Source: an uncultured Granulosicoccaceae bacterium (GTDB taxonomy: Bacteria > Pseudomonadota > Gammaproteobacteria > CALCKW01). From it: a DNA stretch of 64,000 nt. The translations under genes and the position numbers were made by a program. The notes beneath the pieces are model-generated. The model was not told the DNA's origin, did not search any database, and saw only the letters and a program-made list of their open reading frames with translations. Position 1 is the stretch's first letter. Each line of letters begins with the position of its first letter. Where the stretch lies: assembly GCA_937925815.1 (NCBI GenBank), contig CALAMQ010000004.1:7099-71098 (forward strand), in the 5' to 3' direction. Below, in pieces: positions 3,081-47,017 of the stretch.

Positions 3081-3158
3081 GCGACACCTCCTGAAATCAC
3101 TTTGCGAACTTGTCGTTCAAATTAGGGATGGGGTCTTGATGAGCACTTTGCAATGGGC

Positions 3159-3189
3159 AAAAAAAAACCCGATCAGTGTGATCGGGTTT
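3159..3189 (-). terminator. rho-independent terminator downstream of the DUF1127 gene
   Basis: Perfect hairpin cccgatca-gtg-tgatcggg (3168-3186). Read on the minus strand it is followed by a run of 8-9 U (A-run 3159-3167 on the plus strand). Confidence 0.5.
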
Positions 3190-3222
3190 GCTGTAGACGG
3201 GCCGAACGGGGTCGGCTTGTAC

Positions 3223-3435
3223 TCACTCACGCCAGAAGGGTTTGTTGATTTCATTCGACGCTTCTGTTGGCGTCATGCCGATATCACGCCACAAGCGGGC
3301 GTCCATGCGTGCCAAGGTACGGCGAGACTGCGCACGTTCTTGCCAAGTTGCAATGGCGCCCAATGCGCGTTTCTTGGCATCAGCCAACGCACTGTTAGTG
3401 CCGCTGAGTTTCGCGGCTTCGGTAATTGCACTCAT
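3223..3435 (-). CDS. DUF1127 domain-containing small protein
   Basis: 70 aa; C-terminal motif RTLARMDARLWRDIGMTPTEA matches the DUF1127 signature (RxLxxLxDxxLxDIGLSR-like). It has its own terminator. Confidence 0.6.
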   Translation of the reverse strand: MSAITEAAKLSGTNSALADAKKRALGAIATWQERAQSRRTLARMDARLWRDIGMTPTEASNEINKPFWRE

Positions 3436-3521
3436 AGAGTTCTCTCCAATTCAGTTGTTTAATACGCTCCCGGTTATTCGGCAGCGCGGGTCTTTTCGAG
3501 AGTCAAATCTAGTGCCTAATC

Positions 3522-3565
3522 AAAACCAAAACAGATACAGTTTTGGCGATTGAAAACCATAACAG
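3522..3565. promoter_or_regulatory. direct repeats AAAACCAWAACAG x2 (3522-3534, 3553-3565) in the AT-rich divergent region between the DUF1127 gene and the MocR regulator gene; candidate MocR operator
   Basis: Two 13-nt repeats 31 bp apart centre to centre, in the only AT-rich stretch upstream of the MocR gene. A TAGAAT -10-like hexamer follows at about 3577-3582. Confidence 0.3.
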
Positions 3566-3627
3566 TTTAGATGCTGTAGAATAGATCCACTATCAACGTA
3601 AACAGCATTATTTATGCTGAATATCGC

Positions 3628-5058
3628 ATGCATCAAAGCGGAAAACACTTGTACGAACAAGTGGCAGAAGTAGTGGGAAATATGGTGCAACAAGGCACCC
3701 TGAGACCCGGCGAAAAAGTGCCGTCACTGCGCGCCCTGAGCCGCAAGATGAAAGTCAGCGTGGCAACCGTCATGCAAGCCTATCTGCTGCTGGAAAACCG
3801 TGGCTTAATTGAATCCCGCCCTCAGTCAGGGTTCTACGTCAAAGTCAGCCGAGAGCGTCTGCCGGCGCCACGACGCAAACGCAACCGCAGTCAGACGCCG
3901 CGCAAGGTGCAGTTCGGCAACACCGTCGAGACCATTTTTGCACTGGCAAACCGGCCAGAAGTGGTACCGCTCGGGGTCGCCAACCCATCGCCTGCCCTAC
4001 TGCCCTTACCCGCACTCAATCGCGCCGTGCGCGATGTCATGTCGCGCGAGAGCGCGCACGCGGTGAGTTATGACTTCCCACCCGGCGTGCCGGAGCTTCG
4101 GCGTCAGATCGCGCTGCGCAGCGCTGATATCGGCGTGGACGTCAACCCAGAAAACGTCTTGATCACCAACGGCGCAACCGAAGGATTGATGATCGCGTTG
4201 CAGAGCGTTGCCAAGGCCGGCGATGTGATCGCGGTTGCGGCGCCTGCGTACTTCACGCTGCTGCAAATGATCGAGCGACTCGGGATGCTGGTGGTGGAGG
4301 TTGAGTCGGATCCGGACACCGGAATTGATCTCGACGCGCTCGCAAGCTGGCTCGGTCGGCAGCCCATCGCAGCGGTGGTGGTGTGGGCCAACTTCGCCAA
4401 CCCCACCGGCGCGCTGATGTCGGACGAGAACAAGTCCGAATTGGTCTCGCTGTGCAACCGCCACCGCATCCCGCTGATAGAAGATGATGTCATGGGCGAT
4501 CTACCGTTCAACGGTGAACGCCCGCGCAATTGCAAAGCCTTTGACACGCGCGACACCGTGATAACAGTGTCGTCATTTTCCAAGACCCTGGCGCCGGGCT
4601 ACCGAGTTGGCTGGACGCTGGGCGGCAGTTACCACGCGCGCATGATGCAGCAGAAACAGCTCAACAGCTCGGCCACCAGCAGTCTGTCGCAGCTCGCCCT
4701 CGCGCGCTTCCTCAAAGACGGTCACTACGACCGGCACTTGGTACGCCTGCGCCGCGCCTATCAACAACAGGTGCAGCAGTTGCGTTTTGGTATCGCCGAA
4801 CACTTCCCGCCTGGCACCCGGGTGTCCGATCCACGCGGCGGCTTTGTGGTCTGGGTTGAGTTGCCCGCACAGATAGATTCACAACAGGTTTACGAGAAAG
4901 CACTCAAGGCCGGTATCAGCGTGACGCCGGGTCTGCTGTTTTCTTCCACTGGCCGCTACAACAACTGTTTGCGGCTGTGTGCAGGCCACCCTTGGAACGA
5001 CACCATGCAACGCGCGACAGCCACACTGGGCCAGATCGTCACACAGCTCGCGCGCTGA
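3628..5058 (+). CDS. MocR/GabR-family transcriptional regulator (GntR-type wHTH fused to a class-I aminotransferase-like domain)
   Basis: N-terminal GntR HTH (PGEKVPSLRALSRKMKVSVATVMQAY) and a C-terminal fold-type I PLP domain (SFSKTLAPGYRVGW); 476 aa. Confidence 0.85.
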   Translation: MHQSGKHLYEQVAEVVGNMVQQGTLRPGEKVPSLRALSRKMKVSVATVMQAYLLLENRGLIESRPQSGFYVKVSRERLPAPRRKRNRSQTPRKVQFGNTVETIFALANRPEVVPLGVANPSPALLPLPALNRAVRDVMSRESAHAVSYDFPPGVPELRRQIALRSADIGVDVNPENVLITNGATEGLMIALQSVAKAGDVIAVAAPAYFTLLQMIERLGMLVVEVESDPDTGIDLDALASWLGRQPIAAVVVWANFANPTGALMSDENKSELVSLCNRHRIPLIEDDVMGDLPFNGERPRNCKAFDTRDTVITVSSFSKTLAPGYRVGWTLGGSYHARMMQQKQLNSSATSSLSQLALARFLKDGHYDRHLVRLRRAYQQQVQQLRFGIAEHFPPGTRVSDPRGGFVVWVELPAQIDSQQVYEKALKAGISVTPGLLFSSTGRYNNCLRLCAGHPWNDTMQRATATLGQIVTQLAR

Positions 5059-9065: not shown

Positions 9066-10430
9066 TTACCGCATCGTCACCAGTTCCTCAGAGCTGGTTG
9101 GGTGGATCGCAACGGTGTCGTCAAAGTCAGACTTAGTCGCGCCCATGCGCACGGCTACGGCAAAGCCCTGGATCATCTCGTCGACACCGTGACCGATGGC
9201 GTGCACGCCGACCACGCGCTCGTCGTCGCCAACGGTCACAAGCTTCATCGCCGTCGGTGGCGCCGATTCTTCGAAGGTGTCGACCATGGGCGTAAAACGG
9301 GTCTGGTAGACGGTAACCGCGTCCTCGCCATACTCGGCCTTGGCCTCGGGCTCAGTCAGGCCCACGGTGCCAATCGGCGGGTGCGAGAACACCACCGTGG
9401 CGATGTTGTCGTAATTGAGCTTGCGCTCGGGTTTACCGCCGTAGAGTCGGTCGGCGAGACGGCGCCCGGCGGCAATCGCAACCGGCGTCAGTTGTGCGCG
9501 GCCGGTCACATCACCAATCGCAAACACCCCTTTGACGTTGGTCTCTTGCCATTCGTCGGTTGGGATGTAGCCCGCAGCGTCAGTGACCACACCCACGGTG
9601 TCGAGGTTCAGCGACCCGGACAAAGGCTTGCGGCCAACCGCCCAGATCACCGCGTCAAAGGGCGCGAGTTCGCGCGCGGTGTTGTCGATCACAATCCCGT
9701 CCGCTGTGCGTGCGAGCGCGGTTGGGGTGCAATCGGTGACAAGCTCAATGCCCTGATGCGAGATGGATTCAACCAGCGCGTCGGTCATCAGCGGATCAAA
9801 ATTGCGAAGCGGCGCGTGCTTGCGAACGAGCAAGCTGACATCACTGCCAAACGCCTGCAACACACCTGCAAGCTCCACGGCGATGTAACCCGCGCCTACA
9901 ACCGCCACGCGCTGCGGCCGGTTGACCAGCTCAAAAAAGCCGTCCGAGGTCAGGCCGAGGTCCGCACCGGGGATGTCCGGCACAGTCGGTGTGCCACCGA
10001 CCGCAATCACGATGTTGTCGGCGGTGTAGAGCGCGTCGCCAACGCGGATCGTGCCGCCGCCCTCTGGGTTCACGCTCTCGATCACCGCGTCACCGCGGAT
10101 CGCAGTGACCTTGTTATCCGAGAGGTAACCGTCGTACCAATTCTCGATGCCGCGGATATTGGCCTCGCGCTTGGCCACCAGCTCGCTCCAGTTGACGCCG
10201 TTTAGGGTAACGTCAATGGCGTAGCCTTCGGCGCGCTTGATCGCGGCGAGCTGCTCGGCCCCGAACCACATCATTTTCTTCGGCACACAGCCGCGAATGA
10301 CGCAGGTGCCGCCCATGCGGTCACGCTCGATCAGCGCAGCTTTGGCGCCATAGCTCGCCGCGCGCTGCGCGACCGACAGTCCACCGCTGCCTCCACCGAT
10401 GGCGATCAAATCAAAATGGGTGTCTGTCAT
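9066..10430 (-). CDS. gor: glutathione-disulfide reductase
   Basis: FAD motif [11 protein letters not shown], redox-active [14 protein letters not shown]-terminal HPTSSEE dimerisation/active-site His motif; 454 aa. Confidence 0.9.
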
Positions 10431-10517
10431 GTCTAGGTTGCTCTCATGGTTGAGTGTTCGGCCAAGGCGGGAGTTCTGGCATTATGACGGTGCGTCCCTC
10501 GCCCGCAAGCACCGTCG

Positions 10518-11429
10518 ATGTCTGACCATCCCCTGACCCCAGAAATTCCGCAAGCGCTGTTTGCCAATTGGCGCGAACGCCTGCCTGACTTCATTCGGCT
10601 GACCCGTTTGAACCGGCCAATCGGGGTATTACTGCTTGCGTGGTCAATGTACTGGGGCTTGTGGCTAGGTGCGGGCGGCTGGCCCGGAATCAAGCTTGTA
10701 GTGGTTTTCACGGTGGGTTGCATCCTCACGCGCTCGGCCGGCTGTTGCATCAATGACTACGCCGACCGCCACTTCGACGGCTTCGTGGCGCGCACCACAG
10801 ACCGCCCGATCGCTTCCGGGCGGGTATTGCCAGCAGAAGCGTTGTGGCTCGCCGGCGGGCTGACCGCGCTCGCAGCGGTTTTGCTGCTGTTCACCAACGC
10901 GCTGACGCTCTGGCTCGCGGTGCTCGCGGCCGTCCTCGCTGCCGCCTACCCCTTCTGCAAACGGGTGACGCACTTGCCGCAGATCGTGCTCGGCGCGGCC
11001 TTCGGCATGAGCATCCCGATGGCCTTTGCCGCCACCAGCGGCAGCGTGCCACCGCTTGGCTGGGCGGTGTTTCTGATTTCCTTGATCTGGTCGACGGCCT
11101 ACGACACCGAGTACGCCATGACCGACCGCGATGACGACCTCAAGATCGGCGTCAAGTCCACTGCCATCTTGCTTGGCCGCTTTGATGTCGCGGCGGTCGC
11201 GATCATGCTGCTCGCGGTGTTGCTCGGCCTCGCTGCAGTCGGTGCGCAGTTGCAATTTGGGTTTGCGTGGTGGCTCGGCCTCACAGGCGCCGCCGCCTCG
11301 GCGGGCTACCAAATCTGGCTGATCCGGGCGCGCGATCCCGCCAATTGCTTCCGCGCCTTTTTACACAACCACTATTTCGGCATGTCGGTGTTTGCCGGCC
11401 TGTTCGCCGAATACGCGCTGGCGAGCTGA
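10518..11429 (+). CDS. ubiA: 4-hydroxybenzoate octaprenyltransferase
   Basis: UbiA prenyltransferase motifs (NDYADRHFDG, second Asp-rich YDTEYAMTDRDDD); 303 aa; polytopic. Confidence 0.9.
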   Translation: MSDHPLTPEIPQALFANWRERLPDFIRLTRLNRPIGVLLLAWSMYWGLWLGAGGWPGIKLVVVFTVGCILTRSAGCCINDYADRHFDGFVARTTDRPIASGRVLPAEALWLAGGLTALAAVLLLFTNALTLWLAVLAAVLAAAYPFCKRVTHLPQIVLGAAFGMSIPMAFAATSGSVPPLGWAVFLISLIWSTAYDTEYAMTDRDDDLKIGVKSTAILLGRFDVAAVAIMLLAVLLGLAAVGAQLQFGFAWWLGLTGAAASAGYQIWLIRARDPANCFRAFLHNHYFGMSVFAGLFAEYALAS

Positions 11430-27679: not shown

Positions 27680-28432
27680 TCAGTTCAACTGTGTGAGGTT
27701 TCCGCTCTCGCGTATGCGGTAGCGGTTGCCCGATTCAGGCGTCGCAATTGAATCAAGTGTGAATTGCACGCCGCGGTCGGCGTCTGGTGATGGCACCGCG
27801 ACAATATCAGTCTGGTAGTCGCCGTTTGGGGCGAGCACCACGGTCCCACTCAAGGCGACGTCACCACCTTGATTTTGCAACACGCCGTGTGTGTCTCCGT
27901 CGCGCTCTTCGAGGGTCAGCGAGATGTCGCCAAGTGACACAGAGATCTGACCGATAACCTGCGACTGAGACCACTGCACGACGCCCGTCACCGGTCCAAA
28001 CTGTTGCTCACCGAGCGTAGCGTCGCTGAGTTCAACGCGCATGTCACCTATGAATTGCAGCACGCCAGGCAACACCAGTTTGTCCAACTGCTGCGCGCGA
28101 CCAGTCACCAGCACCTCACGCAGTGTCAGCACACGGCCTAGCCCAACTGAGGCCCAGCCCGCCCCGTCTACTTCTCCGTCCCAGTCAAAGGTGACGTCGG
28201 CGCCCAGTGCACCGCGCAACAAACTCGTAGGGGTCAGATCCCAGTCGAGATCGAGCATGCCGTTGACGGTGTGCAATCCGAACACCGATCCGCGCGCAAG
28301 CGTGCCGTTAAAACGCTCGCCGTCGCGCAGCATCTCTGGCATCCACGGTTGCACCCGACTCAGCGGCGTTTGCAACAGCAGGGTTGCCAGAAGGGCCAGG
28401 ACAAACAGCACCGCCAATCCAATCAATCGCAC
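27680..28432 (-). CDS. gspN: type II secretion system protein N
   Basis: Last gene of the gspG-N operon; 250 aa with an N-terminal TM anchor; position and size match GspN. Confidence 0.6.
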   Translation of the reverse strand: MRLIGLAVLFVLALLATLLLQTPLSRVQPWMPEMLRDGERFNGTLARGSVFGLHTVNGMLDLDWDLTPTSLLRGALGADVTFDWDGEVDGAGWASVGLGRVLTLREVLVTGRAQQLDKLVLPGVLQFIGDMRVELSDATLGEQQFGPVTGVVQWSQSQVIGQISVSLGDISLTLEERDGDTHGVLQNQGGDVALSGTVVLAPNGDYQTDIVAVPSPDADRGVQFTLDSIATPESGNRYRIRESGNLTQLN

Positions 28433-28433
28433 C

Positions 28434-28928
28434 TCAACGCTCCAGTGATATGCGCGCGCTCACCAATCCCGGCTGCCGGCGGCTGAGGTTGAGTTGGGTC
28501 ACGCGCAGGCCATAGCGCTGCTCGGCCACACCGAGCGCCCGCATCAGATCGTCCATGACAATGTCCGAGAACTGCACGCGGGCGCCGTCTTGGCCAAGCG
28601 GTTCAATGCGGCTCGGCTGACCGAGGCCCGCCTCGCGAAATGTCTGATCAAGTGCGGCAAGCGGGCTTGTATTGCGATCGGCGGCCGACGCCGCGCTGCC
28701 GCCAGATGATTGCAAACTGATGGCCTCACCGGCGGCAACCTGCATGTAACTGATTGACCTCACGTTGCCGTCAACGCGCGCCCGCGTGAGGGTCAAAGTG
28801 TCGACAAACGGGCGGATCGCGAGCAGGTAGAGCGCCAACAACAACAAGGTCACAGCGCAGAGCACGATCAGGATCTGTTCGCGCGGTGCGCGGGCTTGAA
28901 ACATCGCTAAGACATCGCGCGCGGTCAT
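28434..28928 (-). CDS. gspM: type II secretion system protein M
   Basis: 164 aa bitopic protein directly after gspL. Confidence 0.7.
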   Translation of the reverse strand: MTARDVLAMFQARAPREQILIVLCAVTLLLLALYLLAIRPFVDTLTLTRARVDGNVRSISYMQVAAGEAISLQSSGGSAASAADRNTSPLAALDQTFREAGLGQPSRIEPLGQDGARVQFSDIVMDDLMRALGVAEQRYGLRVTQLNLSRRQPGLVSARISLER

Positions 28929-30139
28929 ACCCGAGACTCCAAACGCAAACGTCCACGCACACCGCCCTGCTGCTGGTTGGCCGACTGCACCGTCGCCTGC
29001 ACTGCACCGCTTTGCTCTATCAACGATTTCAGGCGATCGAGCTCTTGCAAACTGGTGACTATCAATTCGACATCGGCGCGGCCCTGGCGGTAGTTGACGC
29101 TGTTGAGCGCCGCTCCAGGCGCGGCGTTGAGCGCCTCACCCAGCACCGCGAGTAAATCAAATACGCCGACCTCACTGCCGGCTTTGAGCGCGCTGAGACG
29201 GCTGCGCATCTGACCGACCGGTTCCTGGACCGTTCGCGCGCTGGGAAAAGCGCGCTGATACAGCGCCACCATCTGCGCGCGCTGGGCAGAATCGGTGGCT
29301 TTGAGTTGATTCAATTCGAACACGCTCGCAACCGCGAGGCACACAACCAAAACCGCCGCCAAAATGGCCGGTACCCGCCAGGGTGTGAGCGCCTTGCCCA
29401 GTTGCTGCTGCGGCCCAAATTCCCCTTGTAGGAGGTTGATACGCGGTGACGCGAGCCCGCGTGCAAAGGCGGCAACAGCCGCCTCAGTTGCGACCCGGTC
29501 AGACAGCAATTTGATTTCGGGTACGTGCAACGAACTGTCGCTGTACCACGTGATCTGCATTGGCGCACTTTCACCAGCCTCCGCCATCATCTTTGGCAGC
29601 AGGGTGTCGAGCAATCCGCGTTGACACCACAGTCCGCGGTGCCGACTCTGGCGGATCAGTGCCGCGTGCTGGTCGAACCAGACTTCCCACTCGTCACTCT
29701 CGCCCAGCGGCAACAGCTGCACGTCCGGCACCACTTCGCGCAACACCATGCCGTGCGCCTGCACGGCGTCAATCACGCGCCGCAGTACCGCTTTGGCGAC
29801 GACGGCCACGGGCACGCCGTCGTCGTTCTCCGCCGGGGCCAAGGCAAAATGCAAGTCCTCGACGTCGTCGGCGAGTTCTTCCTCAAGTGCCCAGGGCAGC
29901 GCGGCGAGTCCGCGGCGCCCACCCGGCACCGTGGCGCGTGTCAGCGTGACAACCGACGCACCGAGCGCGAGGATCACGCGGTAGCCCGACGCGGCTTTCG
30001 CGGCATCGGCGAGCGTACCCATCTCGACAAAGGGCGTATCCCCAAGCGACGGACGCTCTGGGGTGACGCACCAGCTCACAACGACCTCGTCGAGGTCAGC
30101 GACCGGGTCTGCGATGTGTAGGATCAGGATGTCGGGCAC
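28925..30139 (-). CDS. gspL: type II secretion system protein L
   Basis: 404 aa with a cytoplasmic actin-like N-domain, one TM helix (VPAILAAVLVVCLAVASVF) and a periplasmic C-domain. Confidence 0.75.
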   Translation of the reverse strand: MPDILILHIADPVADLDEVVVSWCVTPERPSLGDTPFVEMGTLADAAKAASGYRVILALGASVVTLTRATVPGGRRGLAALPWALEEELADDVEDLHFALAPAENDDGVPVAVVAKAVLRRVIDAVQAHGMVLREVVPDVQLLPLGESDEWEVWFDQHAALIRQSRHRGLWCQRGLLDTLLPKMMAEAGESAPMQITWYSDSSLHVPEIKLLSDRVATEAAVAAFARGLASPRINLLQGEFGPQQQLGKALTPWRVPAILAAVLVVCLAVASVFELNQLKATDSAQRAQMVALYQRAFPSARTVQEPVGQMRSRLSALKAGSEVGVFDLLAVLGEALNAAPGAALNSVNYRQGRADVELIVTSLQELDRLKSLIEQSGAVQATVQSANQQQGGVRGRLRLESRV

Positions 30140-30160
30140 AGGCTCATATCACGGTTAATT

Positions 30161-31225
30161 TCAATTCAGCGCTTGCCAGCGGCGCAATACCGCACTGCGG
30201 CCGTCGTCCGCCCGCTGCAACACACTGTACTGTGTCATAAATGATCCACCGAATTCTATGTCAGCGCGGACCAAGAAGTGTGAGCTTCCGACTGACAACA
30301 AATTTTTGACGGCATCGGGCAGCGCTTGATTCTCACCGTCCACTTCCACGGTGCTCGCCGCCACAAAGTCTTCAACACTCTCGTAGGGGCTGCGGTCTTC
30401 AACGTCCTCGTCGACCGAACCACTCAACGCATCGGCGACATCCACCCCCTCACCGCACTGCGGGTAACGCGTCCAGCCGTCATCTGGCCAACGGTGCAAG
30501 GTGTCGCCGTGCGAGCTGAGGTTGTCACTCAATGCACTGAGCAATTCCGGAGACGCGGTGTTGACGTTGATGAGCGTGCCGCGCGGCAAGGCCACAACAT
30601 AGGGCAGCAAGGTCTCGTAGGCCTCGATGGCGTCCTTGTCACGCCCGTTGAGTCCGTGCACTTGGCGAAGTTCCGTGGTTGAGACCAACGGTCCGTTGGC
30701 CGGCCGGTAGGGCGGATCTTGGGCAACGTAGGTCTCGAGCTCAGCGCCACCGCCCTCAAGCTGGGGTTCGCTATCACTGTCGATCCAATCAACGAGTGCG
30801 CGGGCTATATCGCGGTCGAGCGTGAGCGCGTCGAGCAGGCGCATAAAAACCGCGAGCTGCTCGGTGTCCACAACGCCGTTGGCGTCGACCAAATTGTTGA
30901 CGTTGAAGTGGCCATCGAGGTCGTACACGCAGCCGCTGATAGTGCCACCGGCAACCGGCAGCGGCGGGATACTGATCGCCCAACTGTCTTCGCGCGAGTC
31001 AATTGCATCGTCCTCTGGCGCATCACGTGAGAGCGTGGCGGCGGCAAAGCGTTCAGCGGCAGAAGCAATCGCCGCGGCTTGATCGATGTTTTGATACCCC
31101 TGGAACCGCCGCACCGTCAGGCTCTGGGTGCTCTGCATGTTCACAGCTGAAATGGTGGTGACAGCGACGATACCGAGCACCACCAACATGACCACCCCTG
31201 TTTGCTTTCCAGGACGCTGCATCAT
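30161..31225 (-). CDS. gspK: type II secretion system minor pseudopilin K
   Basis: 354 aa; N-terminal hydrophobic segment (VVMLVVLGIVAVTTISA) lacking the conserved Glu5, as expected for GspK. Confidence 0.75.
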   Translation of the reverse strand: MMQRPGKQTGVVMLVVLGIVAVTTISAVNMQSTQSLTVRRFQGYQNIDQAAAIASAAERFAAATLSRDAPEDDAIDSREDSWAISIPPLPVAGGTISGCVYDLDGHFNVNNLVDANGVVDTEQLAVFMRLLDALTLDRDIARALVDWIDSDSEPQLEGGGAELETYVAQDPPYRPANGPLVSTTELRQVHGLNGRDKDAIEAYETLLPYVVALPRGTLINVNTASPELLSALSDNLSSHGDTLHRWPDDGWTRYPQCGEGVDVADALSGSVDEDVEDRSPYESVEDFVAASTVEVDGENQALPDAVKNLLSVGSSHFLVRADIEFGGSFMTQYSVLQRADDGRSAVLRRWQALN

Positions 31226-31827
31226 GGCACTGCAAACAGTCTGTTGAGCGTGCCCAGCCGCTGGTGCGCCAATTCAACCTCCACCGCCGCAGGCAACAGG
31301 AAAGCCGCTTCTGGGTCAATATCAACTGGCGGCCATGTGCTGTGCCACTCGCCCGAGCGATCGAGGAAGCGCCAGGTGATTTGATCGATCTCAGCCAACA
31401 ACAAACGGTCGACAAAACTGCCCTCGACCATGCGATCGAGGTGAAACCAGCTGCGCCGCAATAAACGGTCGTCCTCAACGCGGTAGGCCACGCGTTGTAA
31501 CTCACTGCGTGGCGGCGTCAGCTCAGGTGCCGGATTGAACCAACCACCGCGCGTGAATTCGAGCACACTGCCATCAAAATCACTGTACTCGACAGCGCGC
31601 CGCTCGCCGCCAAGCTCGTCTGTAACCGGGCGCGCGGTGAGCTGACTCAGGTCGCGAGTCAACGTCAAGAACGTCCTCTCCAGGCTTGCAATTTCTGTCT
31701 GCAAGGCGTCAAGAGAACGCTCAACTCCCGTCACACTGCGCCAGCCTGCTATCGCGGCGGCACTGACAATCACGGTGATCACCATCGCGATCAACAATTC
31801 GATCAAGGTGAAACCCCGGGCTGTCAT
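31222..31827 (-). CDS. gspJ: type II secretion system minor pseudopilin J
   Basis: Prepilin-type N-terminus MTARGFTLIELLIAMVI; 201 aa. Confidence 0.8.
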   Translation of the reverse strand: MTARGFTLIELLIAMVITVIVSAAAIAGWRSVTGVERSLDALQTEIASLERTFLTLTRDLSQLTARPVTDELGGERRAVEYSDFDGSVLEFTRGGWFNPAPELTPPRSELQRVAYRVEDDRLLRRSWFHLDRMVEGSFVDRLLLAEIDQITWRFLDRSGEWHSTWPPVDIDPEAAFLLPAAVEVELAHQRLGTLNRLFAVP

Positions 31828-32219
31828 GGCTGAAGCACCACGCTCGGGTCACCCATAAAGCCCGTCACGGTTGCCAGCGCGCCGCTGGCTGATTCCCGCA
31901 GCCGGACTTGAATCGTGACCTGCCTCAAGAGCGCATCTTCTACGCGCTCAGTTTGCACTCGCCAGAACCAGGTCTGGCCTGCAAGCACCCGTTCACCCTC
32001 CTCCTTGCCGAGGTCCGGCCAGGCATTTTCGATCTGCATTTCAGTCAATTTGTCCGTGGCCACCCAACGCGCGAACGTTTTGTCACGCAGGTAATTGGCG
32101 CTGTTGGCGTAATCGACGCCAGCCTTGGTCAGTGCGGTGATCGCAGTTGCGACAATCGCGAGTGCAAACAGCACTTCGATCAACGTAAAGGCCCGGCTGC
32201 GCGAGATGCGTGTCACCAC
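31824..32219 (-). CDS. gspI: type II secretion system minor pseudopilin I
   Basis: Prepilin-type N-terminus RAFTLIEVLFALAIV; 131 aa. Confidence 0.8.
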   Translation of the reverse strand: MVTRISRSRAFTLIEVLFALAIVATAITALTKAGVDYANSANYLRDKTFARWVATDKLTEMQIENAWPDLGKEEGERVLAGQTWFWRVQTERVEDALLRQVTIQVRLRESASGALATVTGFMGDPSVVLQP

Positions 32220-32224
32220 CGGCT

Positions 32225-32785
32225 TCAGCGCGCCACGGTGCTGAGCGAGACGGGTTCGAGCGGCGTTGGCTCGAGATAGAACAGCCGCTCAGACTCGCGT
32301 GCGTTGACGATCAGGCGATACTGCGGCAAGAGTTCACCATCGGGTAAAAACCAAATATGCGGCACGACAGGCTCATCGTCTGCTTCGAGTTCCGCGAGTG
32401 TATTCAACGCGACCTGTTGTGCTTCGAGCTCGAGGTCGAGGAAGAGTTCGCCGTCGTCTTCAAACCGCGTGCCCTGGAGTTTGCCATCGGCGTCGTAATC
32501 AACCCAACTCCAATCGTCACCGTCAGCTTTCTGGCGCTGGAGAAAACGGTAACTGTCAGTGGTGACGAGCAAACCCAAGGTTGCGTTGTTGAGCAAGGCT
32601 TCATCCACAGCCAGCTGCAACATCACGTGCAGGCGCCGGGCGTGATCACGCTGTTGATCGCGGCCACCGCCAAAATTGACCCGCGTGACCGCAACGCTGC
32701 CAAGCACCCCGATGATCACCATCACCACGAGGATTTCGATCAGGGTAAAACCACGGCCGAGCGCCGGCCGCAGGTAGGCGGGCAT
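32225..32785 (-). CDS. gspH: type II secretion system minor pseudopilin H
   Basis: Prepilin-type N-terminus GRGFTLIEILVVMVIIG. I place the start at the ATG at 32783-32785; the ORF track's 32911 would overlap gspG. Confidence 0.8.
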   Translation of the reverse strand: MPAYLRPALGRGFTLIEILVVMVIIGVLGSVAVTRVNFGGGRDQQRDHARRLHVMLQLAVDEALLNNATLGLLVTTDSYRFLQRQKADGDDWSWVDYDADGKLQGTRFEDDGELFLDLELEAQQVALNTLAELEADDEPVVPHIWFLPDGELLPQYRLIVNARESERLFYLEPTPLEPVSLSTVAR

Positions 32786-32816
32786 CACAGGCGAGGCCAC
32801 GGAGTGTGCGGCGGTT

Positions 32817-33254
32817 TCAGGGGTTCCAGTTGCCGATATCGGCATCGGGGCCCTCGCCACCTGGCGCACCGTCTCGACCGAGGGTGTAGATGTCGATCTC
32901 ACCGTTCTCACCGGGGTTTAGGTAGACGTAATCGCGGTCCCAAGGATCTTTACTCAAGCGTTTGAGGTAACCACCGTCTTTCCAGTTGGGGGCTTCGTCG
33001 CCGGGGTTATCAACCAATGCCTGCAGGCCAACATCGGCACTGGGGTAGTTGAAATTGTCGAGGCGATAAATCTCAAGTGCCGATTCGATAGCGCTGATGT
33101 CCTGCTTTGCCTTGACCACACGCGCCTCGTCGGGGCGACCGAGAATGTTGGGCAAGATAAGCGTGCCGAGCACACCGAGGATCACGACAACAATCATGAT
33201 TTCAAGAAGCGTGAATCCGCGTTGCTTGGCGGCAACGAGGCCAGTGGTCGACAT
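32817..33254 (-). CDS. gspG: type II secretion system major pseudopilin G
   Basis: Classic GspG: KQRGFTLLEIMIVVVILGVL...AKQDISAIESALEIYRLDN...DPWDRDY; 145 aa. Confidence 0.9.
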   Translation of the reverse strand: MSTTGLVAAKQRGFTLLEIMIVVVILGVLGTLILPNILGRPDEARVVKAKQDISAIESALEIYRLDNFNYPSADVGLQALVDNPGDEAPNWKDGGYLKRLSKDPWDRDYVYLNPGENGEIDIYTLGRDGAPGGEGPDADIGNWNP

Positions 33255-42652: not shown

Positions 42653-42827
42653 GGCGGGGTCTCACACGCGGGATGCCTACCATCATAGCGGTCGAATGTC
42701 CCCAGCGTGGAAGCGACGTACACTAGGGCTTGAACTTTCCACGGCTGCGATGGGGCTGCGAAGGCGCACGCGGGTTTCGACCTGATTGACGGCGACCTGC
42801 TCGCACCCACCTGGCTTCACCCGAACC

Positions 42828-43907
42828 ATGACACGCAAGATCATCCACATCGATATGGACGCGTTTTACGCGTCAGTCGAGCAACGCGATAACCCCGCAC
42901 TGCGTGGCAAGCCGGTTGTGGTCGGTGGCCAGCCAGGCAAGCGCGGCGTGGTCGCAGCGGCAAGTTACGAGGCGCGCACCTTCGGGCTGCGCTCGGCAAT
43001 GCCCACTGCCACCGCGGTTCGCCTGTGCCCGGATGCGGTTTTCGTGCGTCCCCGCTTTGACCACTACCGCGCAGTCTCCTCGCAAATTCGTGCAGTCTTT
43101 CAGCACTACACAGACCTGATCGAGCCGCTCTCGCTCGACGAGGCCTACCTTGATGTCACTGAGACCGTGGGCCAAGGCACAGCGAGCGAACTCGCCAAAC
43201 GCATCCGCGAACACATCTTTGAAGACACCTCTCTGACCGCGTCGGCGGGCGTCTCGTACAACAAGTTTCTCGCCAAAGTCGCCTCCGACATCAACAAGCC
43301 CAACGGACAGTGTGTGATCCCACCGGAGCGAGCTGAACGGTTTATCGCGCAACTGCCGGTCGGTAAATTCCACGGTGTTGGCCGCGCAACTGAAGCGAGA
43401 TTGCACGCGCTCGGAATCGAGACTGGTGCCGATCTCGCGCGCTGGGGGGAAGCCGCTCTCGAACGGCAGCTGGGCAAACACGGGCGGTGGTTGCACCGGA
43501 TTGCGCGTGGCGTTGATGAACGACCGGTCGAACCGCACCATGAACGGCGTTCTATCGGCAGCGAAACCACTTTTTTGTCAGACGAGCACAACCGCGAAGC
43601 GATGATCACGAGCCTGCAAGATCAGGCTGAAGAAGTCGCGTCGAGCTTGCAAAAACACAATCTACTCGCCGGCACCCTCGCCATTAAAGTGCGTTACCCG
43701 GACTTCAGCTCAGTGACGCGACAATGCCCTCTCTCACCGCCCACCGACCAACACAAAGCCGTGCTGCCGTTGTTGCCTTTACTGCTTGAACGCACCGAGG
43801 CCATGCAGCTGGGTGTGCGCCTGCTTGGGGTGTCAGTGTCGGCATTGATCGACGCCGACACCGCCCTTCCCGCGCAGCTGCCGCTGCCTTTGAACAACAC
43901 CGCGTAG
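42828..43907 (+). CDS. dinB: DNA polymerase IV
   Basis: Y-family polymerase N-terminus MTRKIIHIDMDAFYASVEQRDNPALRGKPVVVGG and SLDEAYLD catalytic motif. I place the start at MTRKII; the ORF track adds 14 aa. Confidence 0.9.
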   Translation: MTRKIIHIDMDAFYASVEQRDNPALRGKPVVVGGQPGKRGVVAAASYEARTFGLRSAMPTATAVRLCPDAVFVRPRFDHYRAVSSQIRAVFQHYTDLIEPLSLDEAYLDVTETVGQGTASELAKRIREHIFEDTSLTASAGVSYNKFLAKVASDINKPNGQCVIPPERAERFIAQLPVGKFHGVGRATEARLHALGIETGADLARWGEAALERQLGKHGRWLHRIARGVDERPVEPHHERRSIGSETTFLSDEHNREAMITSLQDQAEEVASSLQKHNLLAGTLAIKVRYPDFSSVTRQCPLSPPTDQHKAVLPLLPLLLERTEAMQLGVRLLGVSVSALIDADTALPAQLPLPLNNTA

Positions 43908-43932
43908 CGGGAGTGCGATCAGCTAGCCGCCG

Positions 43933-44631
43933 CTAACGCTCAGACTTGCGGTGCACCGAAAGTGTCTCGCGCATGCTGGTGACAGCATGCTCGGTTTCAA
44001 TGCTGAGGTTGCGCACCGCTGTGGCAATCACTGCGAAGGCCGCACCGTTCTGGCCCAATCTCGCCGCCTCGACGGCAGCGTTGAGCGAGATCATTTTGAT
44101 GCGAGATGAAATGGATTCAACGTTGCTCAGCGTGCGGTTGAGAAACTCCATTGATTCGTTCATCTCTTGCGCCTGCTGGTCGCGGTCATGGCGATAACGC
44201 GCGTAGAATTCTCTCTTAATGCCGTTGAAGCTCTTGGCCAAGGGGCCAGCCACAAGATCCGCCAAACTGCCGAGTTCCACGTGAGAAAGCGTGGACCCTT
44301 CAACCAATCGGTCAATCAACTTGGCGCCGCGCCGTTCGAACTCAATGATCGTCGGGTGCGCCAGTTCGAGATTGTATTCACCGCTAACAGGTGATTCACT
44401 GCCGTCACTAGCGGACATTGCCGCAAGACCGACAGCGATGTCTTGGGTGTTCTTATTGAGTGTTGAGTACGCTTTTTGAATCTTCTCAATCAGAGATTGC
44501 AACTCCGATTCATTCTCACTCCGCGCAGCAACAGCCAGATACATCACCACTTTGTGCGAGAGCATTCGCTGGCTCCCACTGGTGTTCACCAATTCGCCGA
44601 AGTCAACGGCTTTCTCAAGTGCCTTGCCCAT
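43933..44631 (-). CDS. soluble MCP-like mini-protein (PilJ/NarX-type N-terminal sensor helices plus a fragment of an MCP signalling hairpin)
   Basis: 232 aa with no TM segments. The N-terminus (VDFGELVNTSGSQRMLSHKVVMYLAVAA...LQSLIEKIQKAYSTLN) resembles the PilJ/NarX-NIT-type four-helix sensor. The C-terminus (SRIKMISLNAAVEAARLGQNGAAFAVIATAVRNLSIETE) matches the conserved MCP signalling tip. The locus is lower in GC than its flanks. Confidence 0.5.
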   Translation of the reverse strand: MGKALEKAVDFGELVNTSGSQRMLSHKVVMYLAVAARSENESELQSLIEKIQKAYSTLNKNTQDIAVGLAAMSASDGSESPVSGEYNLELAHPTIIEFERRGAKLIDRLVEGSTLSHVELGSLADLVAGPLAKSFNGIKREFYARYRHDRDQQAQEMNESMEFLNRTLSNVESISSRIKMISLNAAVEAARLGQNGAAFAVIATAVRNLSIETEHAVTSMRETLSVHRKSER

Positions 44632-44917
44632 GTGCCTTCCATGTCACATTGCCGCAGCGATGTGCTGCAGCCTGATTTCGGTCAAAGCAGGAACAATTCC
44701 ACTTGTGCACACCCTGTCAAACAGTTCACAGGCACTGTGCAAAACACCCGGGACAAATTGGCATACACCCGTCATTCAATACTACAGCGCACACAAATCA
44801 CACACTGCGACAGAGATCGGCTTGAGCTAGTCAGTTGGGTTCACGCAAAAACAGACTGACATGCGGCAATGCCCTGGCGACGGCATTAACACCTAACAAC
44901 CGCGTGAAATTCGAACC

Positions 44918-46966
44918 TTACTCTGCGCCATCCAGTCGGTACGCGTTGAGCGTGAGCAGCTCGTACGCTGCGGCAATCTCACCTGATTCACCAACCCGTA
45001 TCTCAACATCCCAGCGCACTTCACCGTATTCCGGGTTGCGCGGCTTTTTGGACTTGACGGTCAACCGAACAGAAATGGTGTCACCAAACACCACCGGCTT
45101 CATGAAACGTAAGTTGTCCAATCCAAAGTTTGCAAGGGTTGGCCCCTTCTCAGGTGACACAAACAGGCCTGCGGCAAAAGACAGCAGCAAATAGCCGTGT
45201 GCGACCCGACCTGGAAAAAAGGGATGGTCGGCGACGGCCGCCTCGTCCATGTGCGCGTAGAAGGTGTCGCCTGTGAAACGCGCGAAATGCTCAACGTCCT
45301 CTTTGCTGACTGTGCGCGTGGGCGTGTTGAAGGTGTCGCCAAGCTGCAACTCACCAAACGGTGCTTGAAACGGGTGACGACTCGGTGTGCGCTCGGGTGC
45401 GCCCGGCAACCAACGCCTGCCCACCGCGGCTAGCATGCGCGGACTGCCTTGCAGCGCGCTGCGTTGCATCAAGTGCTTGATCGCGCGCACACCGCCGAGC
45501 TCCTCTCCACCTCCAGCGCGCCCGGGCCCGCCGTGTGTCAAATGCGCGAGCGGCGAACCGTGACCAGTCGATTCGCCAGCGGCGTCCCGGTCCATGACCA
45601 TGAACCTGCCGTGCCACGGCGCCGCACCCAGCGCCACTTCCACTGCCACATCTGGGTCGTGTGTAAACAGTGACCCAACCAAGCTACCGCCGCCGCGGTT
45701 AGCCAGCGACACTGCGTGACCCACATCGCGATAGCCAACAACCGTTGAAACTGGACCAAAGGCCTCGGTGTCGTGAACGCGCTGCGCTGAGTCTGCATCG
45801 CGTGCGACCAACAGCAGCGGCGCGAGATAGGCACCGTTCACGGCGTCAACGCTCGCGTCAAGGCGCTCTGGGTCACCGCACACAAGATCCGCTTCCCCAA
45901 GCAAGGCACCGACGCGCTCGCGCACGTCTTCGCGTTGCGCTTGCCCAGCCAGCGCACCCATGCGCGTTGACTCTTCGCGCGGGTCGCCGATGCGCACTTT
46001 CCCAAGACGCACCGACACCGCTTCGACCACCGCATCAAGGTGCCTGTCTGGCACCAACACGCGACGGATCGCCGTGCATTTTTGTCCGGCTTTGGTGGTC
46101 ATCTCTCGTTGTACTTCACGCACAAAGAGATCAAACTCGGGCGTACCAGGCTTGGCGTCCGGACCGAGTATTGAACAGTTGAGTGAATCTTGTTCAGCAT
46201 TGAGTGCAGCCCCACGCTCAAGCACGGCGGCGTGGTGCCGAAGCCGCCCAGCCGTCGAGGCGGAGCCGGTAAAAGCGATCGTGTCGTGCACACCCAATGG
46301 ATCGAACAAATCACCCACTGGACCTGCAACAAACTGAAACGCGCCCTCGGGCAACAATCCGCTCGACACAATAATGCGTGCGCACGCTTCGGCGAGGTAG
46401 CTGCCAACCGTGGCGGTCTTGGCAATCACGGGCAAGCCCGCCAGCAAGGCTGGCGCGAGTTTTTCAAGCATGCCCCAGATCGGGAAATTGTAGGCGTTGA
46501 CCTGCACCACAACACCGGGTGGCGTGGTGTAGAGGTGCTGACCTAAGAAGCTGCCGTTGCGCGAGAGCTGTTCGACGTCGCCGTCGAGAATATGGTGCTC
46601 ATCGGGAAGCTCGCGCTTGGTCTTTGAGGCCAACACCAACATGGTGCCGGTTCCGCCTTCAATATCGATCCAACTATCAGCGCGGGTGGCGCCGGTGTGG
46701 CAACTGAGCGAGTAAAGTGTTTCTTTTTGCTCGGCAATTGCCAGAGCGAGCTTTTTCACAAGCGTGGCGCGCTGATGAAAGGTCATCGACGCAAGCGCCG
46801 GACCACCACGTGTGCGTGCGAAGTCCGCCGCGTCTGCCAGATTAGGTGCTGGCCCCCGCAATTGCGCCACCACTGAACCATCAATGGCACTTTGCAGAGG
46901 CTGCGCGTCGCCAACACCCTCAACCCACTGGCCGGCTAAATAACTCTGAAGAGTGGATACAGGCAT
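44918..46966 (-). CDS. paaZ: bifunctional oxepin-CoA hydrolase / 3-oxo-5,6-dehydrosuberyl-CoA semialdehyde dehydrogenase
   Basis: N-terminal aldehyde dehydrogenase domain and C-terminal MaoC-like hot-dog domain (FARFTGDTFYAHMDE). I place the start at the ATG at 46964-46966, which has an AAGGGG RBS; the ORF track begins 10 codons upstream at a TTG. Confidence 0.85.
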   Translation of the reverse strand: MPVSTLQSYLAGQWVEGVGDAQPLQSAIDGSVVAQLRGPAPNLADAADFARTRGGPALASMTFHQRATLVKKLALAIAEQKETLYSLSCHTGATRADSWIDIEGGTGTMLVLASKTKRELPDEHHILDGDVEQLSRNGSFLGQHLYTTPPGVVVQVNAYNFPIWGMLEKLAPALLAGLPVIAKTATVGSYLAEACARIIVSSGLLPEGAFQFVAGPVGDLFDPLGVHDTIAFTGSASTAGRLRHHAAVLERGAALNAEQDSLNCSILGPDAKPGTPEFDLFVREVQREMTTKAGQKCTAIRRVLVPDRHLDAVVEAVSVRLGKVRIGDPREESTRMGALAGQAQREDVRERVGALLGEADLVCGDPERLDASVDAVNGAYLAPLLLVARDADSAQRVHDTEAFGPVSTVVGYRDVGHAVSLANRGGGSLVGSLFTHDPDVAVEVALGAAPWHGRFMVMDRDAAGESTGHGSPLAHLTHGGPGRAGGGEELGGVRAIKHLMQRSALQGSPRMLAAVGRRWLPGAPERTPSRHPFQAPFGELQLGDTFNTPTRTVSKEDVEHFARFTGDTFYAHMDEAAVADHPFFPGRVAHGYLLLSFAAGLFVSPEKGPTLANFGLDNLRFMKPVVFGDTISVRLTVKSKKPRNPEYGEVRWDVEIRVGESGEIAAAYELLTLNAYRLDGAE

Positions 46967-46989
46967 CGAAACCCCTTGGCACTGACAGG

Positions 46990-47017
46990 TTGACAATCAC
47001 ACCACGGTGATTATAGT
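46990..47017 (+). promoter_or_regulatory. sigma70-type promoter (TTGACA-16-TATAGT) for paaG-I-J-K, with an inverted-repeat operator AATCAC-N6-GTGATT in the spacer
   Basis: -35 TTGACA at 46990-46995, -10 TATAGT at 47012-47017, perfect inverted repeat at 46995-47012, located in the paaZ/paaG divergent region. Confidence 0.45.

Follow-up and report, generated by a model that had tools for sequence, protein, structure and literature searches.

The gene between paaZ and dinB

The window is the whole stretch of DNA that was analysed (64,000 nucleotides). Between paaZ and dinB it carries a minus-strand gene, here called gene X, with the following neighbours and upstream features.

42786-43907, plus strand: dinB (IMS domains), one flank of gene X
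43933-44631, minus strand: gene X, encoding a 232-aa soluble mini-MCP, from the ORF list (ATG at 44629-44631, TAG stop at 43933-43935)
44632-44917, no strand assigned: paaZ-X intergenic region, 286 bp, GC 0.514
44635-44640, minus strand: Shine-Dalgarno-like GGAAGG, 3 nt ahead of the ATG
44686-44701, minus strand: putative sigma-54-type -24/-12 element TGGAATTGTTCCTGCT (GG at 44700-44699, GC at 44688-44687)
44703-44744, no strand assigned: TGTGCA/GTGCAC motifs in an imperfect inverted repeat, TTGTGCACA at 44703-44711 and TGTGCAAAA at 44736-44744, abutting the -24 box
44918-46996, minus strand: paaZ (Aldedh and MaoC domains), the other flank of gene X

Gene X encodes a real, conserved cytoplasmic protein. 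As the first-pass annotation had stated, the product has no transmembrane (TM) segment (top 19-residue Kyte-Doolittle mean of 0.95). An in-frame TGA is present five codons 5' of the ATG, at 44644-44646. In the orthologous locus L002 the start is identical in position and the N-terminus is kept, and the exact protein was already present in a public collection (P0001). The paaZ-X-dinB slot is shared by three lineages, including that of the window, with orthologues of the same length at 76% and 41% protein identity. The dN/dS of gene X relative to L002 is ~0.09 (dS saturated) and resembles that of the adjoining genes; the sensor half is under purifying selection overall. The first-pass annotation had named a 3' fragment of a disrupted full-length MCP as one outcome that would overturn it. 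Given the upstream stop, the equal-length syntenic orthologues and more than 120 representatives of the same design, gene X is not a gene fragment, and the complete sensor and the dN/dS likewise rule out a pseudogene.

The conserved upstream element is, judged by its letters, of the sigma-54 -24/-12 promoter type. The box reads TGGAAT-N5-CTGCT, with its 5' end 70 nt and its 3' end 54 nt from the gene X ATG, and agrees with TGGCAC-N5-TTGCA at 7 of the 11 specified positions. It is the single match to TGGMAYN5YTGCW in the 64 kb, against a chance expectation of 0.85. In the three-lineage alignment the element is invariant, while the rest of the upstream regions has diverged, and its offset is -70 or -71 in all three. 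It was found in loci L001-L006 and in none of 95 other loci. Scans of 43800-45000 returned no sigma-70-like promoter and no intrinsic terminator, and there was no Rfam match in 43700-45100. The block GGCAATGTGACATGGAAGGCACATGGG at the Shine-Dalgarno-like site is the same in L002.

Repeated TGTGCA/GTGCAC motifs in a 290-bp upstream region had been annotated as possibly regulatory. The repeats exist, at slightly different coordinates and in a region that measures 286 bp, but the regulatory role did not hold up: the upstream alignment showed that they are not kept in the orthologous loci L002 and L006, which rules them out as conserved operators, and it is the sigma-54-type element that is conserved instead. 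By eye, the motifs match the NtrC consensus TGCACC-N5-GGTGCA only weakly. The inverted repeat is a candidate site for, for example, an enhancer-binding protein.

Sensor bundle and signalling hairpin

The 232 residues divide into an N-terminal sensor and a C-terminal hairpin, all encoded on the minus strand.

44182-44628: N-terminal four-helix-bundle sensor of the PilJ/McpN type, residues ~2-150
44554-44589: N-box-like motif VNTSGSQRMLSH, residues 15-26 (from the translation); R22 corresponds to McpN R61, the nitrate-ligating Arg
43936-44166: minimal MCP signalling hairpin, residues 156-232, 77 residues or 11 heptads (from heptad arithmetic and alignments)
43960-44181: Pfam MCPsignal match, residues 151-224, profile positions 22-95 of 172 only
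44041-44058: LGQNGA turn of the hairpin, residues 192-197, with G193 and G196 equivalent to Tsr G390 and G393

The Pfam PilJ profile (PF13675) scores 24.5 bits on the gene X protein, just under its cutoff of 26.6, and matches 115 of 122 family members (E <= 0.01). Searched against the PDB, the family profile retrieved the McpN ligand-binding domain (6gcv) with E = 2.2e-10 and PilJ itself at about 1e-8. The sensor half as a single-sequence query of the PDB returned nothing relevant, and the family profile was needed. The PilJ matches and the 6gcv hit make the homology of the family to PilJ/McpN sensors secure, with gene X a diverged member, and the sensor of gene X is predicted by modelling to fold as a four-helix bundle. 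The PilJ/NarX-type bundle proposed by the first-pass annotation is thus borne out by the family, with gene X itself below the cutoff. That annotation mentioned neither the nitrate N-box nor the large family, nor that a sister subgroup is embedded in nas operons.

The N-box has the pattern [IVL]-[ND]-x-A-G-x-Q-R-M-L-[ST]-Q, and R61 of McpN hydrogen-bonds nitrate (PMC6381276). The box of gene X, V-N-T-S-G-S-Q-R-M-L-S-H, retains the Q-R-M-L core with its Arg, plus the Gly; the strict pattern fails because of the changes A->S and final Q->H. In the 122-member family alignment N16, G19, R22, L24, S25 and R27 are each at least 90% conserved. Among 253 short members, the strict N-box is present in 38 and a relaxed box with the Arg in 227. 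This conservation favours a role in ligand binding for the family. The case is weakened in the clade of gene X, since the box is imperfect in gene X and has been lost, Arg included, in the 41%-identical orthologue (P0003).

The C-terminus scores 48.4 bits against the Pfam MCPsignal profile (PF00015; cutoff 34.6, E = 1.3e-12), which also matches 120 of the 122 family members. The MCP tip of the first-pass annotation, for which a missing MCPsignal hit would have been fatal, is therefore confirmed. In phmmer alignments, residues 153-220 match 4jpb_B and 3ur1_C, receptor tip fragments of 85-90 residues, and Tsr 352-418 pairs with residues 155-221. With Foldseek, the predicted models superpose on 6s1k_E, a receptor tip of E. 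coli, in alignments of 83 columns (1.8 A) and 87 columns (2.4 A), each with a probability of 1.00. The AF2 model is of a monomer, and DSSP showed no break at the turn.

The tip, NAAVEAARLGQNGAAFAVIA, shares sequence and fold with the canonical signalling domain and keeps the equivalents of Tsr N381, E385, R388, G390, G393 and F396. These include F199 (Tsr F396), the pair E188-R191 (E385-R388) and the turn glycines G193 and G196; the roles of the Phe pair, the E385-R388 pair and the turn Gly have been described (PMC6681711). Several canonical residues are replaced (Tsr E391->Q, R394->A, G395->A and E402->A). The three orthologues differ little in the tip. Family-wide, nas-linked members included, the equivalents of N381, R388, G390, G393 and F396 are 97-100% conserved, and both turn glycines are 100% conserved in the short members whose tip motif could be located (211 of 253).

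The hairpin corresponds to Tsr 353-429 only. Compared with a canonical MCP, gene X has no methylation helices or sites, no glycine-hinged flexible bundle and no C-terminal CheR-tethering pentapeptide; the partial coverage of the MCPsignal profile and the ~11 heptads agree with the earlier statement that HAMP and methylation helices are missing. The recognised MCP heptad classes run from 24H to 64H, with Tsr at 36H (PMC6943060). These classes include the methylation helices, and the 11 heptads of gene X fall outside them, being not even half as long as the shortest, 24H. In the literature, no reference was found to a natural receptor of about 11 heptads, and no description of this family or of its short architecture.

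The sensor is closest to that of McpN (PA2788, Pseudomonas aeruginosa; 6gcv), a nitrate chemoreceptor with a PilJ-type ligand-binding domain (PMC6381276). McpN is a transmembrane protein that has its sensor in the periplasm and carries HAMP as well as a full-length, methylatable signalling domain, whereas gene X is cytoplasmic, has neither TM nor HAMP, keeps only 11 heptads of the signalling domain, and departs from the McpN-type N-box at two positions. NarX/NarQ and NasR (NIT-ANTAR) are nitrate/nitrite sensors on the same bundle; their outputs are a histidine kinase (NarX/NarQ) or ANTAR (NasR) in place of an MCP tip, and NarX and NarQ sense in the periplasm. The soluble receptors Aer2/McpB, HemAT, TlpT/TlpC and FrzCD resemble gene X: they too have no TM and join a cytoplasmic sensor to an MCP tip. 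They keep full-length adaptation and signalling domains, often with HAMP or PAS; gene X has neither full-length adaptation domains nor HAMP/PAS. Its best PDB sequence matches, 3ur1 and 4jpb (the T. maritima Tm14 'protein interaction region'; 33.8 and 33.5 bits, and about 73 bits with the family profile), are engineered pieces of a receptor tip, crystallised together with CheA P4-P5 and CheW. Those hairpins are laboratory truncations, whereas gene X is a natural product with a sensor attached.

Family and genomic neighbourhoods

The family of gene X is uncharacterised, and its best-sampled branch lies inside nitrate-assimilation operons. By exhaustive profile search the family has more than 120 representatives of the same about-225-aa design, and at least 364 genomes among the GTDB representatives carry a member; a word-index homology search found only four short relatives and, when run with the alignment of the 'RMLSH' subgroup, returned mostly ordinary MCPs matched through the tip.

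In the Oxalobacteraceae sister subgroup, the gene is co-directional with and directly 3' of nrtA(BC) inside the nas cluster in 80/80 genomes sampled. An ANTAR regulator was present upstream in 69 of these loci, and narK-nirBD-nasA downstream in 50-58. Members of this subgroup were found in Herbaspirillum, Duganella, Massilia and relatives. The sister subgroup (Burkholderiales) is about 20-25% identical to gene X. Its tip, FNAQ(I/V)(V/M)AARAGxxGREFAVVA, has V, I or M at the E385 equivalent, and the 'DEVR' is replaced.

Gene X groups with the 'RMLSH' subgroup and not with the nas-operon subgroup, being outside an nrt/nas cluster, in the paaZ-dinB slot, and having a different tip. A metagenome scan for subgroup loci yielded four that were usable. 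The members of this subgroup are orphan genes, and the five contexts examined share nothing; no nas genes were found near gene X or the five relatives. The subgroup keeps the canonical E385-R388-F396, and its tip is nearer the MCP consensus. One member overlaps a downstream TM_HPP gene, from a family that includes nitrite transporters. In the 64-kb window, no second MCP-tip ORF was found with the family HMM, and no che genes were recognised in a domain scan that covered a minority of the ORFs.

Proposed role and alternatives

We tentatively favour, as possible though short of probable, a reading in which gene X is a non-adapting cytoplasmic oxyanion mini-chemoreceptor that docks onto CheA/CheW; the ligand, the partner, the dimerisation and the physiological signal are what we infer. 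A dimeric PilJ/McpN-type bundle with its near-complete N-box would sense a small oxyanion inside the cell, with nitrate or nitrite the likeliest. From the last sensor helix the chain would continue unbroken into the N-arm of the 11-heptad hairpin, and the hairpin, as the MCP protein-interaction tip, would join trimers of receptor dimers and bind CheW and CheA, so that ligand occupancy would bias kinase output. Since there are no methylation helices, the receptor would not adapt. Transcription would start from its own sigma-54-type promoter; the protein is for this reason probably made only under a specific condition, for which nitrogen status is the obvious candidate. Counting against docking, no che genes were recognised among the minority of ORFs of the 64-kb window that were domain-scanned, and the window showed no other MCP. 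The nas linkage has been seen only in the Burkholderiales subgroup, in which the E385 equivalent is lost. The imperfect N-box, the 7/11 sigma-54 match, the replaced tip residues, the turn that DSSP leaves unbroken in the monomer model and the unshared 'RMLSH' contexts also weigh against this reading, and no binding site for an activator of the sigma-54-type promoter was identified.

A broader claim, that these proteins form an unrecognised class of minimal (about 10-11-heptad), non-methylatable cytoplasmic chemoreceptors in which an N-box nitrate/nitrite reading is fed to CheA/CheW arrays, is doubtful. If true, chemotaxis would be coupled to nitrogen-oxyanion assimilation, by nas-operon-encoded receptors in hundreds of Burkholderiales and by a sigma-54-controlled orphan here, and a sensor plus the protein-interaction tip alone would suffice for a natural receptor. 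A natural receptor of 11 heptads would be a test case for how much of the MCP cytoplasmic portion a protein needs to enter arrays and control the kinase, and for how a sensor bundle can act on the tip with no TM, HAMP or methylation modules in between. The nas-embedded subgroup (Herbaspirillum, Duganella, Massilia) offers a tractable handle for distinguishing intracellular nitrate/nitrite-taxis coupling from a non-chemotactic tip partner.

Such a partner defines the best-surviving alternative, which we regard as somewhat unlikely: the tip has been co-opted for a protein other than CheA/CheW, the family is a cytoplasmic nitrate/nitrite-responsive regulator of assimilation, and gene X is its dispersed paralogue. 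The targets may be, for example, the NasS-NasT antiterminator pair, the NrtABC transporter or siroheme supply. The invariant position 3' of nrtA(BC), the ANTAR and narK-nirBD-nasA neighbours, the diverged sister-subgroup tip and the TM_HPP overlap of one 'RMLSH' member all point in this direction. However, many ordinary MCP genes likewise sit beside the metabolic genes they serve, and gene X and its five subgroup relatives are away from nas genes. The E385-R388-F396 retained in the subgroup of gene X is hard to explain without canonical partners, and the family-wide conservation of the five tip equivalents is as expected if array contacts persist. Should docking fail, the family would clearly exemplify the recruitment of an MCP tip into a different pathway.

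A modulator or decoy of CheA/CheW arrays, as the first-pass annotation had suggested, is plausible in general terms. Its ligand-independent form, in which gene X titrates CheW/CheA or caps trimers and the sensor bundle is only a dimerisation scaffold, is unlikely; when expressed, such a protein may damp or reset chemotaxis. The missing adaptation helices and the imperfect or lost N-box beside a nearly identical tip in the three orthologues are consistent with it, as is conditional expression, if the sigma-54-type element acts as a promoter. Soluble Tsr tip fragments, which jam or activate CheA, provide a precedent. It is opposed by the conservation of the six N-box-region residues across the 122 members, by the Arg-containing box in 227/253 short members and by the purifying selection on the sensor half.

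The annotated link to the type IV pilus Chp/Pil chemosensory system, with gene X as its modulator, is very improbable. The sole pointer to it is the Pfam domain name PilJ, whereas the family profile prefers the McpN ligand-binding domain over PilJ, and the domains of PilJ itself have no N-box (PMC6381276). The PilJ/Chp receptor is transmembrane, with tandem PilJ domains, and occurs with pilGHI-chpA; gene X has a single bundle, no TM and no adjacent pil/chp genes, and none were recognised in the window among the minority of ORFs that were domain-scanned. Pilin-like genes at 27.7-32.9 kb resemble type II secretion pseudopilins.

That gene X is what remains of a decaying full-length MCP, or a newly acquired foreign islet, is refuted as far as sequence analysis reaches: the low local GC (0.54 vs 0.61) and a GC3 somewhat under that of the neighbours in L002 and L006 would fit, but the upstream stop, the complete sensor, the same-slot orthologues, a dN/dS on par with the adjoining genes and an architecture common to hundreds of relatives do not. 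Over 43908-44917 the GC is 0.538, where the window averages 0.609 (sd 0.025); this places the interval among the lowest 1.2% of 1010-bp windows. The annotated drop from 65% to 55% thus stands as a dip, from a flank level of about 0.61 and not 0.65. Recent horizontal acquisition, which had been read from this shift, is not supported by the sequence comparisons; the three-lineage synteny, down to 41% identity, and the dN/dS of ~0.09 contradict it. A recent islet is also ruled out by the GC deficit itself, which falls mainly on codon positions 1 and 2, with a GC3 of 0.644 in gene X and 0.642 in paaZ.

The gene and its signalling hairpin

The 232-aa gene, here termed X, and its flanking features were located as follows.

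42786-43907, forward strand: dinB (IMS domains)
43933-44631, reverse strand: X, ORF of 232 aa with an ATG start, flanked by dinB and paaZ
3 nt 5' of the X ATG, reverse strand: Shine-Dalgarno sequence GGAAGG
44918-46996, reverse strand: paaZ (Aldedh and MaoC domains)

A TGA lies in frame five codons 5' of the ATG. Nothing in the product is hydrophobic enough to form a transmembrane segment (Kyte-Doolittle peak of 0.95, 19-residue mean). Pfam MCPsignal matched with 48.4 bits (cutoff 34.6) over residues 151-224 only, corresponding to profile positions 22-95 of 172, and PilJ scored 24.5 bits over residues 12-60, slightly under its cutoff of 26.6. The first-pass annotation of a soluble protein joining a sensor to an MCP tip was therefore correct. 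The domains are not new, since databases label these proteins MCPs and Pfam detects both halves; X itself has diverged within an uncharacterised subfamily.

The AF2 model of X from a 65-sequence alignment (pLDDT 89.9, pTM 0.70) contained helices at 2-36, 41-75 and 88-110, followed in DSSP by one unbroken helix (117-231). Both models superposed on 6s1k_E, the receptor tip of the E. coli core signalling unit, one over 83 columns (1.8 A) and the other over 87 columns (2.4 A), each with probability 1.00. As a straight helix could not superpose on this tip, the hairpin exists in the models although DSSP reports an unbroken helix. Using phmmer, X residues 155-221 aligned to residues 352-418 of Tsr, the E. 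coli chemoreceptor used here for numbering; the hairpin (156-232; 77 residues, or 11 heptads) thus corresponds to Tsr 353-429, a segment that contains neither the glycine hinge nor the methylation sites of Tsr. Recognised classes of MCP run from 64H down to 24H, Tsr being 36H (PMC6943060). The top PDB sequence matches were the tip fragments 4jpb_B and 3ur1_C (85-90 residues). These are reported to have been crystallised as complexes with CheA and CheW; if so, a hairpin of this size is enough for those contacts.

Family members and their neighbourhoods

The first word-index search returned four short relatives, and X seemed nearly unique. An exhaustive HMMER search, with a profile built from four sequences, identified 405 representatives at E < 1e-10, and nearly all of the top ~130 matches were 200-260 aa and aligned end to end. 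MCPsignal was present in 120/122 aligned members and PilJ in 115/122. When the word-index search was repeated with this 122-member alignment, 559 proteins scored E < 1e-10. Cultured Burkholderiales (Noviherbaspirillum, Duganella, Massilia, Curvibacter, Rhodoferax) contribute many of them, annotated only as 'methyl-accepting chemotaxis protein' or 'hypothetical'. Among species-representative genomes, 364 contained relatives in a scan that used a tighter alignment of Burkholderiales sequences. The short full-length members (n = 253) end a median of 31 residues past the turn (5th-95th percentile 29-37). The proteins P0271-P0284 are also soluble (230-258 aa) and have the same cut-down tip (34-41 residues beyond the turn), with a more diverged N-terminal box (F/Y-R-x-Q-x-G-R-hydrophobic-x-F-F) and no PilJ Pfam match. 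As they share the format with a different box, a sensor bundle plus minimal tip is a recurring design. An example locus of this set is L101:9001-9714; another member, P0281, is an orphan gene adjoining polA.

Family members were found within assimilatory nitrate/nitrite (nas) clusters in Duganella (L009-L011) and in GCA_011388215.1 (L012, L013). Eighty loci were kept from the genome scan (L014-L093), all from Oxalobacteraceae, with neighbours detected by tblastn probes. The family gene lies directly 3' of an nrtA-type gene (detected in 78/80) in the same direction. An ANTAR regulator lies upstream in 69/80; on the downstream side are nirB (58/80), narK (57/80) and nasA (50/80). Two layouts were seen, ANTAR-nrtA-nrtB-nrtC-X and ANTAR-nrtA-X. 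The 80 loci are phylogenetically clustered; a second subgroup (~35% identical) has the same linkage. In each locus the family gene lies at ~10001-10650 and encodes 200-230 aa with PilJ and the MCP tip; it is a fixed cluster member in Duganella, Herbaspirillum, Massilia, Pseudoduganella, Rugamonas and other genera. In the ANTAR-nrtA-X layout the ANTAR-nrtA pair resembles nasT-nasS, and cobA/narK/nirBD/nasA come after either layout. A description of an MCP-tip gene inside nas operons, or of a natural receptor of ~11 heptads, was not found in the literature searched, which excluded most subscription-journal papers.

X's own subgroup differs: the five contexts inspected have nothing in common (POT transporter and PmbA; IF3 and YitT; MarR; TamB; radical SAM and an overlapping TM_HPP). 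The overlap is a single case, in which the gene for P0128 (L100:9001-10295, Geminicoccaceae MAG GCA_041398035.1) runs 13 nt into the downstream TM_HPP (PF04982) membrane-protein gene in an operon-like manner; the HPP family includes nitrite transporters. In Noviherbaspirillum denitrificans (L008:8001-11290), a family member that lies in no nas cluster converges on a MASE1-PAS-GGDEF-EAL gene.

Sensor box, tip residues and proposed function

The nitrate-binding N-box of McpN, a Pseudomonas aeruginosa receptor with a PilJ-type sensor, is [IVL]-[ND]-x-A-G-x-Q-R-M-L-[ST]-Q, and its R61 holds one nitrate on the dimer axis (PMC6381276). The X box, V-N-T-S-G-S-Q-R-M-L-S-H, retains the arginine (R22), the glycine and the QRML core, but carries S in place of A and H in place of the last Q. 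The subgroup to which X belongs is marked by [IV]N-x-[SAC]-G-[KR]-x-R-M-L-S-H, and its tip is near the MCP consensus. Equivalents of Tsr N381, R388, G390, G393 and F396 are 97-100% conserved across the family, and the X tip is non-canonical at those of E391, R394, G395 and E402. The F396 pair is found in all known MCPs, and the E385-R388 pair governs kinase output, not assembly (PMC6681711).

The best-supported reading, held tentatively and at somewhat less than an even chance, is that X is a cytoplasmic, non-adapting mini-chemoreceptor with an oxyanion sensor, a CheW/CheA-docking hairpin and conditional expression. The N-box bundle would detect an oxyanion inside the cell, with nitrate or nitrite the likeliest ligands, and the last helix of the bundle would run on into the minimal hairpin, which would take its place in trimers of dimers and bind CheW/CheA. 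The main rival, which we consider less likely, is that the tip now acts on a partner outside chemotaxis, in the control of nitrate assimilation. In favour of this, the sister subgroup is embedded in nas operons and its tip has diverged, with V, I or M at the E385 equivalent; against it in the case of X, the canonical E385/R388/F396 set is kept and the gene is an orphan. It is less probable again that X is a ligand-independent decoy. Loss of the N-box in P0003, the 41%-identical orthologue, favours a decoy and is the main reason for caution on ligand binding in X's clade; the strong family-wide conservation of the box (a relaxed form including the Arg in 227/253 short full-length members) speaks against one. 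A role in a Chp/pilus system appears very improbable. In the 64-kb window, where a minority of all ORFs were domain-scanned, no che, pil/chp or nas genes were seen among the recognisable ORFs, and a search with the family HMM turned up no further protein with an MCP tip.

Upstream region and age of the locus

The TGTGCA motifs previously put forward as possibly regulatory show no conservation. Alignment of three lineages showed another element, TGGAAT-N5-CTGCTTT, to be invariant while the rest of the spacer had diverged. Its spacing is GG-N10-GC, as in sigma-54 promoters, and it matches TGGCAC-N5-TTGCA at 7/11 specified positions. It is the sole TGGMAYN5YTGCW match in 64 kb; ~0.85 are expected by chance window-wide, and so ~0.002 in the X spacer on X's strand. 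The element is present in L001-L006 and absent from the remaining 95 loci. With the L006 start shifted to Met14, its distance to the ATG is the same in all lineages (-70/-71). Two unrelated members with their own upstream regions have good matches (L008, TGGCAT-N5-ATGCT at -51; L012, TGGCGC-N5-TTGCT). No sigma-70-like promoter, terminator (43800-45000) or Rfam element (43700-45100) was found around X. From its sequence, the element is a probable, not proven, sigma-54 promoter, from which X would be expressed conditionally. The annotated start of P0003 lies just 15 nt past the element (L006:1450-1489); as Met14 (L006:1489) restores the -71 spacing of the window and L002, the database version of P0003 probably starts 13 residues too early. 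A GAAC-N7-CAG block ~15-30 nt 5' of the -24/-12 box is also conserved in the three lineages (window 44702-44744, L002, L006).

Orthologues of X occupy the same paaZ-X-dinB-MFS-DUF900 slot at 76% identity (P0002, L002-L005) and 41% identity (P0003, L006, a Pseudomonadota MAG). The L002 gene is annotated from a later start, and the DNA 5' of it encodes X's ATG and N-terminus VDFGELVNTSGSQRMLSHK. The reported GC drop is real (0.538 over 43908-44917 against a window mean of 0.609, among the lowest 1.2% of 1010-bp windows), although the flanks are at ~0.61, not 0.65. GC3 is equal in X (0.644) and paaZ (0.642); the deficit sits in codon positions 1 (0.57) and 2 (0.41), where it reflects which amino acids are used, with a further contribution from the intergenic region, which is richer in AT. 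The orthologues have the same pattern, with GC3 a little lower than in neighbouring genes. Between X and L002, dN/dS was ~0.09, resembling paaZ, dinB and the MFS gene, with dS saturated. Given the syntenic orthologues, matching GC3 and low dN/dS, X is a long-standing resident under purifying selection, and any horizontal acquisition predates the split of the three lineages. A recent foreign islet, or a fragment of a disrupted MCP, which the upstream in-frame TGA and same-slot orthologues also oppose, is hardly credible.

A second GC dip of comparable depth (~0.535-0.56, 1010-bp windows) at 2600-3350 covers the 5' part of the ORF at 2253-3080 (reverse strand) and the intergenic region 3080-3628. 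At 27680-32911 (reverse strand), six co-directional ORFs form a run. The products of two of them, 31222-31827 and 31824-32219, begin like prepilins (GFTLIELLIA... and AFTLIEVLFALAI...), so that the run, judged by N-terminal sequence alone, may be a pseudopilin / gspG-M block for type II secretion.
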